DNA of 64,000 nt from Escherichia coli (lineage in GTDB: Bacteria > Pseudomonadota > Gammaproteobacteria > Enterobacterales > Enterobacteriaceae), in the NCBI RefSeq assembly GCF_024223415.1, contig NZ_CP100500.1; one strand, written 5' to 3'. The notes under the pieces were generated by a model. The model was given only the letters and a program-made list of their open reading frames with translations. It ran no database searches and was not told where the DNA came from. Positions 2,840 through 56,425 of this stretch are shown in pieces. The translations under genes were made by a program, and so were the position numbers. Numbering within the stretch: position 1 is the first letter of the stretch; each line of letters begins with the position of its first letter.

Positions 2840-4840
2840 TCATCCTTGTTGCTGAAGCATGGGGAATAATTGTTCGCAAAGCAAAACACCGTTATTCATT
2901 GCTTCTACCCGTGCCTCGCTTTCTGTATTACGAAATTGTCCCAACACATGTGCCAGCCGATAAAAACCCACCGCGGTGAGGTCATTCGCCAGCAACTCTG
3001 CCTGACCAATAGCACTCTGTTCCTGATAGCGCCAGCCGTTATGGAGCAGTTGAATAAGTAACGCCTGGCAGCGTATCAGCAACTGATGAGCAGTAGACGG
3101 CACAGGCAAAACGCTGGCAGAAGGTAGCGGTGCCACAGGCGTAGTTTCTGCGTCCAGCGCCCAGGCACGGGTTTTTGTCATCATCACCCGTGGTTCCAGT
3201 GTCAATTGCCCTTCAACAAAACTGACAAAGCCAGAAACCAGACACACGGGGTCGTCTGTTTGTTGCAAAAGCGCCGCCATGCGTTCAACGGCATAAGGTG
3301 CGCTGGCTGAGGCTGGTAATGATAACGTCAGCACATTATCTTCCCCTTCGCCGCTAATGACCTGCGCATCCAGCGTCTGGCGGCTGCTGTCCCAACCGAG
3401 CGAAATACACTCAGCGACCGGCAGAATAAATAAGTTATCGACCTGATTAAGAGGCCGTATGCAGGCGGGGGGACGCTGGCGTAAATATTCCCGCAAAGCC
3501 ACAATGCCCGGCTGGCGTAACGGCGCGCTCAACATTTGCCAGGCATCAGGCGACAGCGGCACAACGCTGCTTAAGCGGTTGCGGGTAGCTAACAGCAGCT
3601 CGCCATCGGCACTGCGTTTTGCTGCTTGTGAAACAATTTGCCCGCCCGCCAGTGCGCCAGCCTGAAAACTAAACAGCCGACGCGTAGCTGCCGGTGAGTT
3701 TTCCTGTTCACTTCGCGGCCAACTGCGCGAAAGGTGCAAAATACTGCCGGTGTCGGGATCGGTAAACCAGATGCGTAAACCATAATGCTCAATATCCTGC
3801 CAGCAACGCATACCTAAAGACACCAGCCGCAGATGATCAAGCTTTGCTTCTCCGGCAATGCCAGAGCCAACGACCGTGCGCCACGGCACAGGAGGAACTT
3901 CACCAATACTGTCGCGCCGGGCCATCTCTTGTGCGCAATTTAATCGACTGTTTAATGCCGCAAGCTGATGTAAGCATTCTCCGGCATTATAGTGGCTGGC
4001 GCGGGCGTGGAAGGCATCAACGCTGGCGCGCAGTTGCCGTAGCGATTCACTCACCCAGCGCCAGTTGCAGGTCTCTGCCGCCTGCAATGCGCGGTTGAAT
4101 GCTGCCTCGTAATGGATGAGCGGCTGGCTGATGCCGCCAAGCCATAATGTCTGGCTTAATTGCTGAACATATTGACGACACGCGTTGCCTTCTTCGCTGG
4201 CAAACGGATCGTCAGATGATGTGACGTGTTCGCTGCGCATCTGCCAGATTAAATGGTTAAATTCTGCTTGCTGCGCTTTGGCCTCGACGAAGGCCTGTAC
4301 CGCCAGTACGACATGTTCGCAAAGTGTGCCTTCAATACAATCACAACGGGCGAAACGAATACTGCTGCGGGAATAAAAACGCACATCGCTCATCGGTAAG
4401 CGGGCAGAGGGAATTTCACCCGGCGCACAGAACAACTCAATGGTGATGCCTTTAGCGACCAGCGCCTGTGCGCGTTTGCGGGTAGCATCGGGAAGGGTAG
4501 CCAGTTCTTCCAGCCAGATTGCCGGATCCCACTCTTCTTCTTTTTCCGTAGACTGAGTGGTGGCACAAAGTCGTTGATAACTTAACACCAGCATCACGCG
4601 ATGACGGCACATACCGTTGGCCCCGCAACTGCACTGAGCCTCTTTCAGTGCCTGGCCGTTCGCCAGCTGGGTACGGACACCGTCACTGAAGGTGGCGATT
4701 AAAGCGTCGTTCTCATGGCTGATCTCCGGGACGTTGCCATTTTCCAGTTCCTTAAGACTGCGCTTAACAAAACCGGCATTGCTTAACGCCGTCAGGGCCT
4801 GCGGTGTCAGTTCTAATAATTCCGGACGTAGTGAATTCAT
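2840..4840 (-). CDS. yehQ: SWIM zinc-finger domain protein YehQ
   Basis: Long ORF; CxC...CxH SWIM-like motif (CSCGANGMCRHRVM); start placed at ATG forming ATGA overlap with yehP stop. Confidence 0.75.
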   Translation of the reverse strand: MNSLRPELLELTPQALTALSNAGFVKRSLKELENGNVPEISHENDALIATFSDGVRTQLANGQALKEAQCSCGANGMCRHRVMLVLSYQRLCATTQSTEKEEEWDPAIWLEELATLPDATRKRAQALVAKGITIELFCAPGEIPSARLPMSDVRFYSRSSIRFARCDCIEGTLCEHVVLAVQAFVEAKAQQAEFNHLIWQMRSEHVTSSDDPFASEEGNACRQYVQQLSQTLWLGGISQPLIHYEAAFNRALQAAETCNWRWVSESLRQLRASVDAFHARASHYNAGECLHQLAALNSRLNCAQEMARRDSIGEVPPVPWRTVVGSGIAGEAKLDHLRLVSLGMRCWQDIEHYGLRIWFTDPDTGSILHLSRSWPRSEQENSPAATRRLFSFQAGALAGGQIVSQAAKRSADGELLLATRNRLSSVVPLSPDAWQMLSAPLRQPGIVALREYLRQRPPACIRPLNQVDNLFILPVAECISLGWDSSRQTLDAQVISGEGEDNVLTLSLPASASAPYAVERMAALLQQTDDPVCLVSGFVSFVEGQLTLEPRVMMTKTRAWALDAETTPVAPLPSASVLPVPSTAHQLLIRCQALLIQLLHNGWRYQEQSAIGQAELLANDLTAVGFYRLAHVLGQFRNTESEARVEAMNNGVLLCEQLFPMLQQQG

Positions 4841-9454: not shown

Positions 9455-9490
9455 TAAAAAAACCTGCTGGTGAGGCAGGTTCTTTTATTT
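9455..9490 (-). terminator. Intrinsic terminator downstream of yehK (minus strand)
   Basis: Hairpin aacctgctgg/ccagcaggtt with flanking A/T runs. Confidence 0.5.
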
Positions 9491-9650
9491 ACTATTTTCA
9501 GGCCTAACACCACAGCCTGTGCAACATCGTGTTCCAACGAACGAATTATAACCACGGCTGGACCCCGTTGCAATTAAGATAATGAGATTTATAATCCAGG
9601 CCATTGGGACGTTGCGCCGGATCGGACCAATTTGAATTATTTAGAGTATA

Positions 9651-28504: not shown

Positions 28505-28557
28505 CAACCAAACGACTCGGGGTGCCCTTCTGCGTGAAGGCTGAGAAATACCCGTAT
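28505..28557 (+). ncRNA. 5' fragment of thiM TPP riboswitch aptamer, severed from thiMD by the island insertion
   Basis: Sequence aaccaaacgactcggggtgcccttctgcgtgaaggctgagaaatacccgtat matches the 5' half of the thiM thi-box leader, then diverges into island DNA. Confidence 0.75.
28544..28557. repeat. attL core: 14-bp direct repeat AGAAATACCCGTAT
   Basis: Identical 14-mer found again at 39954-39967 at the other island boundary; both lie within riboswitch sequence. Confidence 0.75.
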
Positions 28558-28643
28558 TTTCTCATTTAGTGTTTTTTGTGGTTCGGGGTTGTTCGTGGTT
28601 GTTTGTGTATGTGTTTGATATATATTGAATTATTGTGTTTTCT

Positions 28644-28718
28644 TGTTTGTTGTTGTTCGTCGTTGTTCGTAGAGCTTCAACAAAATGTGTGGTCAGTTGT
28701 GTGGTCAGTTTTTTGAGG
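28644..28718. repeat. Left copy of ~75-bp near-identical direct repeat just inside the island end
   Basis: ttgttcgtcgttgttcgtagagcttcaacaaaatgtgtggtcagttgtgtggtcagtttt shared with 39821-39895; contains internal TTGTTCGT and TGTGGTCAGTT sub-repeats. Confidence 0.85.
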
Positions 28719-28745: not shown

Positions 28746-29969
28746 GTGGGAAAAGCACTAAACAAACTGAGCGATTCGACGTTAAAAAAATTGGCGTCTG
28801 TCCAAGCAGAAAAAGAGCGTTTTTACTCCGACGGGGGCGGGCTGGAGATTAAACACTCAAAGGGCGGCAAATTAACCTGGTATTTCCGGTACCGAACGGG
28901 AGGCCGTGAGGTTGCCGCAGAGCGGTTAAAGCTGGGGGCTTACCCTGAATTGTCGCTGAAAGCTGCAAGGGAAAAACGCGCACAGTGCCGGGCATGGCTG
29001 GCTGAGGGTAAAAACCCCCGTTATGAGTTGTGCGCCACAGTACAGGAAGCGCTAAAACCCGTTACGGTGAAGGAGGCGATTAACTACTGGCTGGATGAAT
29101 ATGCGAAGGATAACCGCAAAGACTACATAAAGCTGGTGCAACGTATGGATAAGCACATCATTTGCCATATAGGGGCAATTCCCCTTGATAAGTGTGATAC
29201 AAGGCAGTGGATCGCATGTTTTGACCGTGTACGAAAAAAAGCACCAGTAGCAGCAGGGCACGTCATGCAAACCTGCAAACAGGCGCTAAAGTTCTGCCGC
29301 AGGAGACGCTACGCGTTCAGTAATGCCCTGGACGATTTGATCGTCAGCGATGTGGGTAAGAGAGCAGAAATTCGCGAGAGGGTGCACAGCAACAGCGAAT
29401 TAAAGGAAATTTTACGCGCTATTGATGGTGATGTGTTCGCGCCTTACTACAGCGCGTTAATGCGCTTGCTGATTGTGTTCGGGTGCAGAACGGCAGAGGT
29501 CAGACTTTCAGAGATCAAAGAATGGGATCTGAAAGAAATGTTGTGGACAGTGCCAAAAGAGCATAGCAAAACGAAGGTAACGATATTCAGGCCAATCCCC
29601 GATGGCATTTTGCCGTTCATTCAGAAGCTGGTGGAGCAGAACCGGCATACAGGGTTATTACTCGGAGAACTGAAAAAAGATACCACGGTAGCGCAATATG
29701 GGCGAAATGCGCATAAGCGGCTTAACCAGGAACACTGGACGCTGCATGACTTTCGCCACACGTTTACAACGATGCTGAACGATTTAGGTGTCGATCCGCA
29801 TATCGTGGAGCACATCACAGCGCATCAGATGCCCGGTCAGCAAAAAACCTATAACCATTCACGCTATTTACAGGCGAAGCGAGACGCTCTGAATCTGTGG
29901 GTTGAGCGCCTCGATGTGCTGGCTGGAAATCATGAAAATATTGTCATATTAAGGGCTGAAAATGAATAA
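28746..29969 (+). CDS. int: Tyrosine recombinase, P4-type integrase
   Basis: N-terminal arm-binding-like segment (SDGGGLEIKHSKGGKLTWYFRYR) and C-terminal catalytic region (HDFRHTFTT...); apparent GTG start. Confidence 0.9.
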   Translation: MGKALNKLSDSTLKKLASVQAEKERFYSDGGGLEIKHSKGGKLTWYFRYRTGGREVAAERLKLGAYPELSLKAAREKRAQCRAWLAEGKNPRYELCATVQEALKPVTVKEAINYWLDEYAKDNRKDYIKLVQRMDKHIICHIGAIPLDKCDTRQWIACFDRVRKKAPVAAGHVMQTCKQALKFCRRRRYAFSNALDDLIVSDVGKRAEIRERVHSNSELKEILRAIDGDVFAPYYSALMRLLIVFGCRTAEVRLSEIKEWDLKEMLWTVPKEHSKTKVTIFRPIPDGILPFIQKLVEQNRHTGLLLGELKKDTTVAQYGRNAHKRLNQEHWTLHDFRHTFTTMLNDLGVDPHIVEHITAHQMPGQQKTYNHSRYLQAKRDALNLWVERLDVLAGNHENIVILRAENE

Positions 29970-30837: not shown

Positions 30838-31062
30838 ATGAATCAAAATACACAATTTCAATCACTATCAGATCGCGTAATCCGTGAGGATGAATGCCGT
30901 AAGTTAACAGGAGTGTGCCGCACTACACGCTACGAACTGGAGAAAAAAGGGAGCTTTCCGTCTCGCCGTAATCTTGGTGGGCGTTCTGTAGGTTGGCTGC
31001 TGTCCGAGGTTATGGAATGGGTTAAAAGCCGGGATCGCATTAATTCAGGCAAGGCAGCGTAA
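30838..31062 (+). CDS. alpA: AlpA-family phage transcriptional regulator
   Basis: 74-aa small HTH protein with typical AlpA-like pattern (SDRVIREDECRKLTGVCRTTRYELEKKGSFP). Confidence 0.8.
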   Translation: MNQNTQFQSLSDRVIREDECRKLTGVCRTTRYELEKKGSFPSRRNLGGRSVGWLLSEVMEWVKSRDRINSGKAA

Positions 31063-32528: not shown

Positions 32529-32828
32529 ATGAAAAATAAAAATTCTGGCGTTAATGCCAGCGGCCCCGCTCGGCCTGAATTTATGAACGGCGATATTTAC
32601 CGCGACCAGTACGGCGGCACGGTAACGATTAAAGGCGTGGAGGAACGGCGCATCACTTACCGCCGTGAAGGCTACGAATATGATTGCGTGATGCCTGTTT
32701 ATCAGTTCCGGCGTGATTTTTCTCTGGTACAGGCAGCGCCCCGCAGTAAACCAACCAGCAGGGAGAAAGCACGCGCCAATATTCAGGAAATAAAAAAGAT
32801 GCTTAACGTATTCAGGGGTAAAAAATGA
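32529..32828 (+). CDS. Hypothetical protein
   Basis: 99-aa ORF, ATGA-coupled to the primase gene. Confidence 0.45.
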   Translation: MKNKNSGVNASGPARPEFMNGDIYRDQYGGTVTIKGVEERRITYRREGYEYDCVMPVYQFRRDFSLVQAAPRSKPTSREKARANIQEIKKMLNVFRGKK

Positions 32829-34573
32829 AACTGGCACCGAACGTAAAAAAACAGCCGCGTGGAATAAAACACAAAGACACAGAGGTGATTATCTTTGCGG
32901 GTAGTGATGCCTGGGCGCACGCGAAACAGTGGCAGGAACAGGACGGCCCCGCATCCGGCGATGATGTGCCGCCTGTGTGGCTCGGGCCAAATCAGCTTGC
33001 TGAACTGGATGCACTGAAAATTGTACCGGAGGGAAAAAAACGCGTAAGGCTGTACAGGGCCGGAGAACTGGATTTGGTGGAGACCAAAAAGATTGGTCAG
33101 AAGCTGGCGGCGGCAGATATTCAGGATGCGAATTTTTACTCTGAAGGAATGCACGGCCAGAAGGTGCAGAACTGGCGGCGCTATCTGAGTGCTGAGCGTG
33201 AAAATATTGCCGCAGGGCTTACCATGCCGGAACAGAAAAAAGCACAACTTTCACAGATGGCAGACAGTGAACGGGCACAGCTTCTTTCTTCCCGCTTTGA
33301 TGGTGTCTGCGTCCATGCAGAAAGTGAAATCGTTCACGTATGGCGCGGCGGGGTATGGTGTCCGGTCAGCACAATGGAACTTAGCCGCGAAATGGTGGCG
33401 ATCTATTCAGAGCACAGGGCCACTTTCAGCAAGCGCGTAATCAATAACGCCGTGGAAGCGTTAAAAGTTATTGCCGAACCAATGGGCGAGCCGTCCGGCG
33501 ATTTGCTGCCGTTCGCCAATGGTGCGCTTGACCTGAAAACGGGGGAATTTTCCCCGCACACGCCGGAGAACTGGATCACCACGCACAACGGCATTGAGTA
33601 CACGCCACCAGCACCAGGGGAGAATATCTGCGACAACGCGCCAAACTTTCATAAATGGCTTGAGCACGCAGCCGGAAAAGACCCGCGCAAGATGATGCGT
33701 ATATGTGCCGCGCTGTACATGATTATGGCGAACCGGTACGACTGGCAGATGTTTATTGAGGCCACCGGAGACGGCGGGAGCGGCAAAAGTACATTCACAC
33801 ACATAGCCAGCCTTCTGGCAGGGAAACAGAACACGGTAAGCGCTGAGATGACATCGCTTGATGATGCTGGTGGGCGTGCGCAGGTTGTCGGGAGTCGGCT
33901 TATTGTCCTGGCAGACCAGCCGAAATATACAGGCGAAGGAACGGGCATCAAGAAAATCACGGGCGGAGACCCCGTGGAAATAAACCCGAAATATGAGAAG
34001 CGTTTTACGGCGGTAATCAGGGCGGTGGTGCTGGCTACCAACAATAACCCGATGATATTCACCGAACGGGCCGGAGGTGTGTCACGTCGTCGCGTAATTT
34101 TCCGTTTCGACAATATCGTCAGTGAGGCTGAAAAAGACAGGGAGCTACCGGAAAAGATTGCGGCTGAAATCCCTGTCATTATCCGCCGCTTGCTGGCGAA
34201 CTTTGCCGACCCTGAAAAGGCACGGGCTTTACTCATTGAACAGCGAGACGGTGATGAAGCTCTGGCAATAAAGCAACAGACGGATCCGGTTATTGAGTTT
34301 TGCCAGTTTCTGAATTTTCTGGAGGAAGCGCGCGGCCTGATGATGGGCGGCGGCGGTGACTCTTCCAGGTACACGACCAGAAACAGCCTTTACCGCGTCT
34401 ATCTGGCGTTTATGGCGTATGCAGGCAGGAGCAAACCGCTAAACGTAAATGACTTTGGCAAGGCTATGAAGCCAGCGGCGAAAGTTTACGGACATGAATA
34501 TATAACGCGCAGGATTAAAGGGTTTACGCAAACCAACGTGACAACAACAGACGACTGCGACGCGTTTTTATAA
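32825..34573 (+). CDS. Phage/plasmid primase, P4 family (NTPase/helicase domain)
   Basis: 582-aa ORF with Walker A GDGGSGKST and D5/P4-alpha-like C-terminal NTPase architecture. Confidence 0.8.
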   Translation: MKLAPNVKKQPRGIKHKDTEVIIFAGSDAWAHAKQWQEQDGPASGDDVPPVWLGPNQLAELDALKIVPEGKKRVRLYRAGELDLVETKKIGQKLAAADIQDANFYSEGMHGQKVQNWRRYLSAERENIAAGLTMPEQKKAQLSQMADSERAQLLSSRFDGVCVHAESEIVHVWRGGVWCPVSTMELSREMVAIYSEHRATFSKRVINNAVEALKVIAEPMGEPSGDLLPFANGALDLKTGEFSPHTPENWITTHNGIEYTPPAPGENICDNAPNFHKWLEHAAGKDPRKMMRICAALYMIMANRYDWQMFIEATGDGGSGKSTFTHIASLLAGKQNTVSAEMTSLDDAGGRAQVVGSRLIVLADQPKYTGEGTGIKKITGGDPVEINPKYEKRFTAVIRAVVLATNNNPMIFTERAGGVSRRRVIFRFDNIVSEAEKDRELPEKIAAEIPVIIRRLLANFADPEKARALLIEQRDGDEALAIKQQTDPVIEFCQFLNFLEEARGLMMGGGGDSSRYTTRNSLYRVYLAFMAYAGRSKPLNVNDFGKAMKPAAKVYGHEYITRRIKGFTQTNVTTTDDCDAFL

Positions 34574-34597
34574 TTTTTTGTAATTGCTGTCTACCCT

Positions 34598-34815
34598 GTC
34601 TACCTGAGTAAAGAAAAATACATTTAATTCAGTGCATTAAGTTAGGTAGATAGCCTTTTTTTACTGTCTACCCACTATCTACCCTCTCTACCTGATTTTA
34701 CCAGAATCAGACAGGGAGGTAGACACGGGGTAGATAGTGGATAAAAGCACTCTACCCCGCTGAAAGCCGCGCCATTACTGGCATGAGGGCCACTAAGGTA
34801 GGTAAGGTAGACAAG
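34598..34815. repeat. Iteron cluster, putative island replication origin
   Basis: Many direct and inverted copies of GTCTACC/TCTACCC/GGTAGA motifs immediately downstream of the primase gene. Confidence 0.6.
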
Positions 34816-34861
34816 GGGAGGCACAACTCAAAACTTTTTAAACGAGGGGGTAAAAATAAAA

Positions 34862-35119
34862 ATGCACACATCAGAAAAATTTAACAATCAGAAGAAATCA
34901 CATAACCGCGCCATTGACCTTACAGAGCACTGGCTGAGGGTGGCGATAAAAATCATCGACCGCAACGCGGGAGAAGGATACGCGAAAGCACATCCCGAAC
35001 TGATAAGCGCATTCATGACCACAGCGGCGGCAAACTTTGCCACGTTGACAGAACGGGAGATTGCCGAAGCGGAACAGGTGACAACCATCAATGTTAAAAC
35101 CGGAGAGCAGACAGCATGA
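34862..35119 (+). CDS. Hypothetical protein
   Basis: 85-aa ORF, ATGA-coupled to ssb. Confidence 0.45.
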   Translation: MHTSEKFNNQKKSHNRAIDLTEHWLRVAIKIIDRNAGEGYAKAHPELISAFMTTAAANFATLTEREIAEAEQVTTINVKTGEQTA

Positions 35120-35526
35120 CAGCACAGATAGCGGCTTACGGGCGGCTGGTGGACGACCCGCAGACAAAACAGACCAGCAAGGGAACACCGATGACGCTGG
35201 CACGTATGGCGGTATCGCTGCCATGCAGCCAGGCACAGGATGGACAGGCGACGTTATGGCTATCGGTCATCGCATTTGGTAAGCAGGCCGACTTCCTGGC
35301 TAAACATCAAAAAGGCGACGTTGCCAGCGTATCCGGCACGATGCAGGTCAGCCAGTGGACCGGACAGAACGGGGAAACGCGGCAGGGTTATCAGGTTATT
35401 GCAGACAGCGTAATCAGTGCCCGTGCGGCACGTCCTGGCGGGAACAGACGCAAAACCACAGGCACACAGGGTAATCAGCCACCAGCGGGAGGCGATGACC
35501 CTTACGGTGATGATATTCCGTTCTGA
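35116..35526 (+). CDS. ssb: Single-stranded DNA-binding protein
   Basis: OB-fold-like N-terminus, Gly/Pro-rich linker and acidic C-terminal tail ending DDIPF. Confidence 0.8.
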   Translation: MTAQIAAYGRLVDDPQTKQTSKGTPMTLARMAVSLPCSQAQDGQATLWLSVIAFGKQADFLAKHQKGDVASVSGTMQVSQWTGQNGETRQGYQVIADSVISARAARPGGNRRKTTGTQGNQPPAGGDDPYGDDIPF

Positions 35527-35809: not shown

Positions 35810-35815
35810 GCACAC

Positions 35816-35839
35816 AGCCGGAGCAATCCGGCTTTTTTG
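35816..35839 (+). terminator. Intrinsic terminator
   Basis: agccggagcaatccggc followed by TTTTTT. Confidence 0.6.
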
Positions 35840-38085: not shown

Positions 38086-38090
38086 GACAA

Positions 38091-38116
38091 GGCCGGAGAA
38101 ATCCGGCTTTTTTTGC
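38091..38116 (+). terminator. Intrinsic terminator after capsid operon
   Basis: aggccggagaaatccggc followed by TTTTTTT; near-duplicate of the hairpin at 35816. Confidence 0.6.
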
Positions 38117-38200
38117 GGGTCCTTTCCGGCATGTGGACCCGTTACGGGGCGTCGACCTCGCACGTTTTCGCTATTTATGACGTTTTTCCGTGAAGGTGAC
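38115..38200 (+). other. Lambda-like cos site (cosQ-cosN-proximal cosB), copy 1, upstream of terS-like gene
   Basis: gggtcctttccgg...gttacg GGGCGTCGACCT cgcacgttttcgctatttatga closely resembles remembered lambda cos (gggtcctttccgg...gttacg GGGCGGCGACCT cgcgggttttcgctatttatgaaaa). Confidence 0.7.
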
Positions 38201-38247: not shown

Positions 38248-38682
38248 ATGATTGATAAAGCTTGTTTTGTAAGTCAGCAGGAAATAGCTGAACATTTCAA
38301 TGTTAACAGAACCACTATTCGCGCATGGACCAAACAGGGGATGCCGTATCTTAATGCGGATCGCGGAAAGTCTGGCGGTTATCACATCGGGCATACATTG
38401 TTTTGGTATTCAGGTAAAAGCCATCTTCAGACCATCGGATATCACGTAGAAACCAGTGCGCTGGAAAAAATTATGTTTGCCAGGCTGCTTTCATCTGAGC
38501 GTGACGAGTACTCCAGTGAAGAAACAGAACATCGATTTGATGAAGGTTTGCAGATTTACGGCTATTCACCGGAAGATGTGAGCAAGGCACGAAATAAAAT
38601 GGCTGGCTTTCTGGCTGGGTGGCGTCATGCCGTAAGCGTTCGCCGTGCCAGCATGGAGCAATCAGCCGATACAGAACAGTAA
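38248..38682 (+). CDS. Terminase small subunit-like protein (Nu1-like winged-helix N-terminus)
   Basis: N-terminus QQEIAEHFNVNRTTIRAWTKQGMPYL parallels lambda Nu1 KKQLADIFGASIRTIQNWQEQGMPVL; C-terminal part is divergent. Confidence 0.7.
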   Translation: MIDKACFVSQQEIAEHFNVNRTTIRAWTKQGMPYLNADRGKSGGYHIGHTLFWYSGKSHLQTIGYHVETSALEKIMFARLLSSERDEYSSEETEHRFDEGLQIYGYSPEDVSKARNKMAGFLAGWRHAVSVRRASMEQSADTEQ

Positions 38683-39242: not shown

Positions 39243-39374
39243 TACGTACGGACATCGAGATAACGCAAAATTGCGCTGGCTACATCCCTCACATCTGAGG
39301 ACTGATAACAAGCTGCCTGAAAGACAGTCACAAACTACGAAATTTTCGCAGTTTAATTAATGGTCAGCTTAATC

Positions 39375-39665
39375 GCTAACCCGCTGATATTTTCGGAAAC
39401 ATCAATTTGAGGAAGTCGGCGCGGTAACTCGCTGAACTTAAAGCAAAGCGCAAAATTGCGCTGATTACTGGTTGGAATTGTTCCAGAGTGCAAATTTGCA
39501 CTCTGGCCTAACCCGTTGATTATTTCGAAAACCTGCAATGCAGGAAATCGGGGAAGTAAGCCTAAGCTATTGATTGTTTCGAAAACCACCATTGGGGGAT
39601 GTCGGGAAAGTAAGACTAACCCATTGATTCTTCCACAATCCTCAATGTGAGGAGGCCGGACATCG
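39375..39665. repeat. Four ~54-bp imperfect repeats (three in tandem), each with a variable central CAAT-containing near-palindrome
   Basis: Units at ~39375, 39506, 39560, 39614 share CTAACCC.TTGATT.TTTCGAAAAC and TCGGG.AAGTAAG flanks around a variable centre (e.g. cctgcaatgcagg, cctcaatgtgagg). Confidence 0.7.
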
Positions 39666-39820: not shown

Positions 39821-39895
39821 TTGTTTGTTATTGTTCGTCGTTGTTCGTAGAGCTTCAACAAAATGTGTGGTCAGTTGTGTGGTCAGTTTTGAGGT
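39821..39895. repeat. Right copy of ~75-bp near-identical direct repeat just inside the island end
   Basis: Same ~60-bp core as 28644-28718. Confidence 0.85.
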
Positions 39896-39953
39896 TTTTA
39901 ATTCTTATGTGCTGAAAAACTTATTAATTATCAACTGATAACAAAAATTAGTA

Positions 39954-39967
39954 AGAAATACCCGTAT
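39954..39967. repeat. attR core: 14-bp direct repeat AGAAATACCCGTAT
   Basis: Identical to 28544-28557; continues directly into riboswitch 3' sequence. Confidence 0.75.
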
Positions 39968-40048
39968 CACCTGATCTGGATAATGCCAGCGTAGGGAAGT
40001 CACGGACCACCAGGTCATTGCTTCTTCACGTTATGGCAGGAGCAAACT
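39954..40048 (+). ncRNA. 3' part of thiM TPP riboswitch (P4/P5 plus expression platform) retained upstream of thiM
   Basis: gaaatacccgtatcacctgatctggataatgccagcgtagggaagtcacggaccaccaggtcattgcttcttcacgttatggcaggagcaaact ATG matches the thiM leader 3' half. Confidence 0.75.
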
Positions 40049-47839: not shown

Positions 47840-47975
47840 ACGCCTTATACGGACAACACCACCCCGTAGGACGGATAAGGCGTTTACGCTGCATCCGGCA
47901 ACCTATGCCTGATGCGACGCTGAAGCGTCTTATCATGCCTACATAGCACTGCCACGTATGTTTACACCGCATCCG
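47840..47975. repeat. REP/BIME-type palindromic elements
   Basis: gccggatgcagcgtaaacgcc-type units and tgtttacaccgcatccggca seen after fbaB. Confidence 0.5.
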
Positions 47976-56253: not shown

Positions 56254-56340
56254 AAAAAAATAAGCCCGTGTAAGGGAGATTACACAGGCTAAGGAGGTGG
56301 TTCCTGGTACAGCTAGCATTTTATGGGTTATGTTTTTCAG
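56254..56340 (-). ncRNA. cyaR: CyaR (RyeE) Hfq-dependent small RNA
   Basis: Reverse complement reads gctgaaaaacataacccataaaatgctagctgtaccaggaaccacctccttagcctgtgtaatctcccttacacgggcttattttttt, matching remembered CyaR with terminator hairpin. Confidence 0.8.
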
Positions 56341-56425
56341 CGAAACGGATGATAACCTTAATAAATGCAGCTGTATGTGATCGGTTTCTAAGAATTTTCC
56401 ATCCGGGAAAAATAATCGAAATTAA

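Follow-up and report, generated by a model that had tools for sequence, protein, structure and literature searches.

The intergenic region at positions 34574-34861 of a 64,000-nucleotide stretch of Escherichia coli DNA (contig NZ_CP100500.1 of assembly GCF_024223415.1; the whole stretch is referred to below as the window) is very probably the vegetative replication origin (ori) of a phage-inducible chromosomal island (PICI) of the EcCICFT073 type. It follows directly on pri, the gene for the P4-family initiator of the island, and contains eleven short repeats (iterons) in a mirror-symmetric array. The origin type is already known, the class having been described and functionally tested in a publication of 2018; the present analysis therefore mainly confirms an annotation, and nothing fundamental changes.

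The repeat core, TCTACC, was counted in both orientations over the whole window. Among the 25 exact copies found, ten lie within 34590-34811, where the background rate outside the cluster predicts 0.05 copies per 222 bp (Poisson P(>=10) = 4e-20). An eleventh iteron is the one-mismatch variant CCTACC, read as GGTAGG at 34797-34802; at this position (iteron 10) both CFT073 and IAI39 carry the exact GGTAGA. When one mismatch was allowed in 250-bp windows, the maximum of the 64 kb was reached in the array only (11 matches, compared to a median of 2). The initial annotation, made from the letters alone, had reported over a dozen such motifs in both orientations immediately 3' of a primase gene: the cluster is real, but the count comes down to eleven, i.e. 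ten exact copies and the variant. The extended iteron consensus is (C)T(G/A)TCTACC(C/T), with GTCTACC and TCTACCC each present in five of the eleven copies. The hexamers are found at 34590 (+), 34599 (+), 34645 (-), 34667 (+), 34678 (+), 34687 (+), 34718 (-), 34729 (-), 34751 (+), 34797 (-) and 34806 (-), giving the strand order + + - + + + - - + - - and gaps of 9, 46, 22, 11, 9, 31, 11, 22, 46 and 9. Elsewhere in the island no TCTACC was found on either strand, the alpA and int promoters included, and there is no second TCTACC cluster in the island or in the 64-kb window. The array takes up the 288 bp that separate the initiator gene from an 85-aa open reading frame (ORF), orf85, its first iteron lying 15 nt after the pri stop codon; the gene context described earlier, with the P4-family "primase" ORF, the array, a small ORF and then ssb, is thereby borne out.

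Both the iteron gaps and the inverted repeats make the array mirror-symmetric about 34701. Three of these repeats, I1, I2 and I8, have a common centre at 34700.5-34701, and two of them are long and imperfect (arms of 50 nt in I1 and 22 nt in I2). In each half, two outer iterons at a distance of 9 bp are followed inwards by a spacer of about 46 bp and by the inner iterons, of which the left half has one more than the right half. The two spacers differ in composition: the right one has 60% GC, whereas the left one, bordered by iterons 1-2 and 3-6, has 23% GC over 40 bp and is the only AT-rich one of the two. On the basis of this AT-richness, the left spacer (34605-34644) is likely the melting site. 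Within 34300-35100, stability is lowest in the 30-mers with starts at 34564-34615, which belong to the top 0.7% of the window. The region also folds as single-stranded DNA far better than its shuffles (z -5.3), because the iterons are inverted. An RNA gene was considered and rejected, the Rfam matches being limited to sub-threshold eukaryotic miRNA hairpin models that arise from the palindrome, and a minus-strand ORF inside the repeats (34675-34824, 49 aa, GTG start) was treated as spurious. Between iterons 8 and 9 a DnaA-box-like TTATCCACT is present at 34737-34745 on the minus strand, with an 8/9 match to TTATCCACA; it was set aside as a part of the origin, as it occurs in the CFT073-like subgroup only and is absent from the other ori variants.

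The functional evidence comes from the island EcCICFT073, for which plasmid replication was shown to depend on both Pri and ori, the pair being sufficient. Fillol-Salom et al. (2018, ISME J, PMC6092414) found maintenance of a temperature-sensitive plasmid at 44 °C when it carried pri-ori, but not when it carried pri-Δori or Δpri-ori. According to the primer table of that article, the Δori construct stops immediately past the end of pri, at its stop codon (…GCGACGCGTTTTTATAATTTG), and the pri-ori construct about 25 nt into the next ORF; the tested "ori" is therefore exactly the intergenic region. Its counterpart in the window aligns with it base for base (alignment A1), with 11/11 iterons at identical spacings and few point changes, among them GGTAGA there and GGTAGG here in iteron 10. 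In both islands the ori is directly 3' of pri, with iterons beside an AT-rich stretch. The two Pri proteins share 90% identity over their whole length and hardly differ from residue 140 on, whereas their N-terminal 138 residues diverge more than the remainder. The islands further share gene sizes and the order int, alpA, DUF4222, pri, ori, orf85, ssb, perC, capsid/decoration and TerS-like, but occupy different sites: roxA(ycfD)-phoQ in EcCICFT073 and rcnR-thiM here, as in EcCI224. The element is an EcCICFT073-type PICI and not a P4 satellite, and the reading of the repeats as a satellite ori gains support from homology to the EcCICFT073 ori by position and sequence. The proposed test, cloning the fragment and assaying primase-dependent replication, had in effect already been done with a positive outcome on the near-identical EcCICFT073 copy. 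The sufficiency of pri-ori in EcCICFT073, together with the single TCTACC cluster, points to this one array as the origin.

The initiator matches the Pfam families D5_N, DUF5906 and Pox_D5, of which D5_N and DUF5906 make up a superfamily 3 (SF3) helicase at residues 151-415, as well as the helicase part of the P4 family in NCBIfam (TIGR01613, "primase_Cterm"). Over residues 139-577 it is 41% identical to residues 324-762 of P4 alpha, and its helicase part matches the SaPI5 primase-helicase 7OLA (E 8e-15). Residues 486-577 match the origin-binding domain of P4 alpha (PDB 1KA8; phmmer E 1.5e-8); this homology equips the initiator for recognition of its own origin, in agreement with the initial proposal of an ori recognised by its own initiator. 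For the first 138 residues, neither a Pfam match nor a counterpart of the P4 alpha primase domain was found. Residues 1-135 have a Toprim-like fold that lacks the catalytic motifs: the catalytic Glu and the DxD are not conserved, with FAG replacing xEG and DxD absent. This domain has only 77 relatives among 1.84 billion representative proteins, in which it is always N-terminal and joined to several different helicase bodies. Judging from sequence and a model, the initiator may act as a helicase that also binds the origin, its Toprim domain being a vestige. The label "primase" is doubtful, and replication is more safely called initiator/helicase-dependent than primase-dependent.

For comparison, 86 relatives were collected from E. 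coli genomes and IMG/VR contigs, representing 62 distinct ori sequences. These have as a rule 9-11 exact cores, in two main layouts: ++-+++--+--, as in the present array, and ++--++--+--. Conservation is 0.91 in the iteron cores versus 0.68 at the other array positions, which argues for selection on the cores, and the composition of the spacers is kept as well (mean GC of 0.25 on the left and 0.54 on the right in 60 relatives). No complete E. coli genome in the collection carries a copy above 94.3% identity over pri-ssb, and a megablast search of the phage collection gave no match. Two flank types were recognised in the E. coli family, CT(G/A)- and CC(C)-, next to a TCTACC core that never varies. 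The flank goes along with two residues of the origin-binding domain: N542/G545 occurs with the T-type flank in 38/38 cases and A542/S545 with the C-type flank in 48/49. This covariation is suggestive of flank reading by residues 542 and 545, which are located at the start of the third helix in a low-confidence AlphaFold model that is indicative only (6-sequence alignment, pLDDT 53).

A scan of genome contigs with the initiator returned one relative only, in Morganella morganii H1r (L002, 1966-4640). It is a P4-alpha-like protein of 794 aa with an intact Toprim_3, 52% identical to the present initiator over the helicase and binding domains. In the equivalent place there are ten TGTTCAT iterons, close to P4 TGTTCACC, in a mirror layout with spacings of 9 / 42 … 42 / 8, and the array closes with AAAACTTTTT. 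Position and layout are thus kept while the repeat changes with the protein, as expected of initiator-binding sites.

In P4, the alpha protein binds its TGTTCACC repeats. The P4 features compared here are taken from the GenBank annotation (NC_001609) and general knowledge. The crr of P4 (4291-4590) is located directly 3' of alpha, which ends at 4636, so that crr starts 46 bp past the stop codon; it is built from a 120-bp unit present in two direct copies, each with five type I iterons, and the mapped ori, with six more iterons, is 4.5 kb away. Read in the direction of alpha, a crr unit comprises inner iterons, a 42-bp spacer starting with CTGAAA, two tandem iterons and AAAA(C/T)TTTTT. The present array is alike in having 8-bp iterons of either orientation immediately past the 3' end of the initiator gene, in the unit plan with a spacer of about 42-46 bp, a tandem pair 9 bp apart and the closing AAAA(C/T)TTTTT, and in the homologous helicase and origin-binding domain of its initiator. 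This unit plan is that of the right half of the array, including CTGAAA and AAAACTTTTT, and the left half mirrors it. The GC-rich block at 34759-34787 starts with CTGAAA, found at the equivalent spot in both P4 crr units. There are also differences: (i) the units form a direct repeat in P4, but are inverted about 34701 here; (ii) P4 needs a separate ori, whereas the island has a single cluster; (iii) P4 alpha has an N-terminal Toprim primase of 323 residues, compared to a Toprim-like domain of 138 residues without catalytic motifs; (iv) the right spacer is GC-rich and conserved here, unlike in P4 crr; and (v) although TGTCTACC here resembles TGTTCACC in P4, the P4 type I iteron TGTTCACC itself is not what the array contains, the iterons being of the TGTTCA type in P4 and Morganella and of the TCTACC type here. 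From these comparisons the PICI origin is likely made up of two crr-like units, inverted with respect to each other and related by descent to P4 crr.

Theta plasmid origins (pSC101, F, P1, R6K and RK2) have direct repeats of 17-22 bp, and their Rep protein recruits host DnaA, DnaB and DnaC. They resemble the present region in having repeated initiator sites by an AT-rich unwinding element with the initiator gene adjacent. Their plan differs from the 8-bp, bidirectional and mirror-symmetric iterons found here, where the initiator is itself a helicase and the lone DnaA-box-like site is not conserved across relatives. In the origins of Staphylococcus aureus pathogenicity islands (SaPIs) and other Gram-positive PICIs, located 3' of rep, the iterons border an AT-rich region (Ubeda et al. 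2007, as summarised in PMC6092414). Here too a self-loading helicase initiator is encoded next door, but the protein is only distantly related and the iteron sequence differs.

In the proposed mechanism, the initiator, which combines an SF3 helicase with a C-terminal winged-helix origin-binding domain of the P4 alpha type, would be made after induction. By homology to P4 alpha, the C-terminal domain is predicted to bind the eleven 8-bp iterons, (C)T(G/A)TCTACC, in their two mirror-image units. The initiator may then assemble as a hexameric helicase on the left spacer, which would melt, and replication would proceed with host DNA polymerase III and the SSB of the island. Priming would probably fall to host DnaG, because the Toprim-like domain has neither the catalytic Glu nor the DxD.

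Several points weigh against this interpretation or parts of it. The function is carried over from the homologue and does not come from the present sequence. In PMC6092414 itself, the loss of ori is described as giving "significantly reduced" colony numbers, not as abolishing them, and the text of the article, as far as available, reports neither protein-DNA binding nor mapping of the start site. Linkage alone could account for the covariation of residues 542/545 with the flank, given a distance of about 100 bp between the iterons and the coding region of the domain, and the shared phylogeny of the sequences. The segment 30150-30190 is less stable than the AT-rich spacer, so that the spacer is not the minimum of the island. 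Kinship to crr rests on layout and short motifs, the DNA alignment (A2) having a mean column identity of 57%, which is not significant, and the priming step is deduced from motifs that are missing.

Instead of an origin, the repeats might represent operator or activator sites, bound by a transcription factor such as AlpA or PerC, in the promoter of the orf85-ssb-perC-capsid operon. The array is indeed directly upstream of this operon, orf85 has a conserved AAAACTTTTTAAAC and a strong ribosome-binding site in front of it, and inverted-repeat arrays are typical of operators. This explanation is nevertheless improbable: no sigma-70-like promoter was found on the + strand within 34300-35200, nor a terminator after pri, so that read-through from upstream is likely; TCTACC is absent from the rest of the island, for instance from the promoters of alpA and int; loss of the homologous region impairs plasmid replication and not just expression; and the equivalent layout at P4 crr belongs to a replication element. 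A dual role is conceivable, in which the array serves as the origin and binding of the initiator also affects transcription. It is more improbable still that the array acts strictly as crr does, as a cis enhancer to which the initiator binds, with replication starting from another, distant ori of the island. The layout does resemble crr units, and in P4 the cluster 3' of alpha is crr with the mapped ori 4.5 kb off, but neither the island nor the window offers a second TCTACC cluster, and in EcCICFT073 a fragment with only pri and the ori region suffices for plasmid maintenance.

There is hardly any probability left for a packaging (cos/pac) site, a recombination site, or a chance or degenerate repeat without function. 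Satellites do have repeated terminase-binding sites near cos, and the strong single-stranded fold of the region could be taken in favour of a packaging site; this fold, however, merely reflects the inverted iterons, with nothing but sub-threshold matches in Rfam, and a cosN-like GGGCGTCGACCT is found at 38147, by the TerS-like gene. The att (attachment) cores sit at the island ends. A functionless chance repeat is ruled out by the Poisson probability given above, and the conservation of the cores over the spacers in the 62 relatives shows selection. For the replication origin, which is the reading retained, a more far-reaching version can be formulated: a sole mirror origin descended from crr, an initiator that has lost its primase chemistry, with a vestigial Toprim-fold domain left, so that the satellite depends on host DnaG, and residues 542/545, at the start of the putative recognition helix, that set the flank (CTG/CCC). 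This combination is advanced tentatively, as a possibility that we consider rather less probable than its failure in at least one part. If true, the flank reading by residues 542/545 would divide co-resident PICIs into replication-specificity groups. In practical terms, the origin can now be marked to the base pair, with its eleven iterons, AT-rich spacer, dyad, GC block and closing A/T motif (Table 1). The crr-like mirror layout, the split in flanks and residues and the doubtful primase are modest additions, which could aid work on satellite replication, on incompatibility between co-resident islands and on PICI-based delivery vectors.

Table 1. Features of the origin region and of the island that carries it (positions in the window; a point marks features without strand).
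Feature	Position	Strand	Basis or remark
attL core AGAAATACCCGTAT, left island end, downstream of rcnR	28544..28557	+	
Tyrosine integrase	28746..29969	+	phrog_1, E 4.6e-67
AlpA-like excisionase/regulator	30838..31062	+	phrog_2790, phrog_66; placed as the helix-turn-helix regulator of EcCICFT073
Initiator, 582 aa ("Pri" / "DNA primase family protein")	32825..34573	+	90% identical to EcCICFT073 Pri
Region coding for the origin-binding domain (residues 486-577, including N542 and G545)	34280..34555	+	phmmer
Whole intergenic ori region	34574..34861	.	homologue of the tested EcCICFT073 ori; alignment A1, pJP2027/pJP2028 primers
Outer left iteron pair, TGTCTACC at 34588-34595 and 34597-34604, 9 bp apart	34590..34604	+	invariant in 9 diverse relatives
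AT-rich spacer, putative DNA-unwinding element	34605..34644	.	23% GC, 40 bp
Iteron 3 (GGTAGA), right edge of AT-rich spacer	34645..34650	-	
Inner left iterons 4-6 (cores 34667, 34678, 34687)	34667..34692	+	
Central dyad CTGATT-ttaccag-AATCAG	34692..34710	.	symmetry centre (~34701) of the whole array
Inner right iterons 7 and 8 (minus, 34718 and 34729) and iteron 9 (plus, 34751)	34718..34756	.	
Conserved GC-rich block GCTGAAAGCCGCGCCATTACTGGCATGA, right spacer	34759..34787	.	conservation 0.92 in 62 distinct relatives, equal to that of the iteron cores; many invariant columns in alignment A1
Outer right iteron pair, GGTAGG 34797 (one mismatch) and GGTAGA 34806, 9 bp apart	34797..34811	-	
AAAACTTTTT motif closing the right unit	34830..34839	+	also closes both P4 crr units and the Morganella array
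85-aa ORF (orf85), first gene after ori	34862..35119	+	phrog_1231; kept in EcCICFT073 and IAI39
Island-encoded single-stranded-DNA-binding protein (ssb)	35116..35526	+	phrog_44, E 1.7e-40
attR core AGAAATACCCGTAT, right island end, in the thiM leader	39954..39967	+	

The origin belongs to an 11.4-kb Gram-negative PICI of the EcCICFT073 type, with rcnR and thiM as the genes on either side of the insertion. Its ends are given by a 14-bp direct repeat, AGAAATACCCGTAT, of which exactly two copies occur in the window (0.01 expected), 11.4 kb apart; Table S1 of PMC6092414 gives this att sequence and this site (frmR-thiM) for EcCI224. The flanks, with rcnA and rcnR on the left and thiM and thiD on the right, are 100% identical to the E. 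coli chromosome. All island genes are on the + strand, in the order integrase, AlpA-like, Icd-like, DUF4222, initiator, repeats, orf85, ssb, PerC-like, lambda-type major head, decoration, protease-like fragment and TerS-like, a gene set and order that correspond to the layout of Gram-negative PICIs; the co-directional int, alpA and pri, the size of 11.4 kb (about 10-20 kb in PICIs), the specific att site and the lack of tail or lysis genes are likewise those of a PICI.

Other features were noted within the island. The cosN-like GGGCGTCGACCT at 38147-38158, upstream of the TerS-like gene (38248-38682), has one mismatch to lambda cosN and is, by this resemblance, likely the packaging site of the island. 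The att core is located inside the thiamine pyrophosphate (TPP) riboswitch of thiM, the aptamer of which is split by the 11.4-kb island (28508-28603 / 39900-40014): partial matches to RF00059 were obtained on both sides (19.5 and 34.8 bits, compared to a gathering score of 54.3) and no full RF00059 match in the window. Integration of the island may therefore alter the regulation of thiMD. Some 65-85 bp inside the att cores there is a 70-nt direct repeat, 99% identical between its copies at 28643-28712 and 39821-39890 and holding tandem TGTGTGGTCAGT and GTTGTTCGT sub-repeats; these end repeats are possibly arm-type sites of the integrase. Three copies of a 54-nt repeat (70-100% identity) occupy 39374-39613, between the last island gene and attR. 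A hairpin with a T-run, GCCGGAG(C/A)AATCCGGCTTTTTT, is present both at 35812-35838, after the PerC-like gene, and at 38087-38113, after a 137-aa ORF, and the pair look like two copies of one intrinsic terminator. Finally, three chromosomal small RNAs scored above their Rfam gathering scores: OrzO-P antitoxin RNA (9456-9531), naRNA4 (47869-47939) and CyaR (56258-56343).
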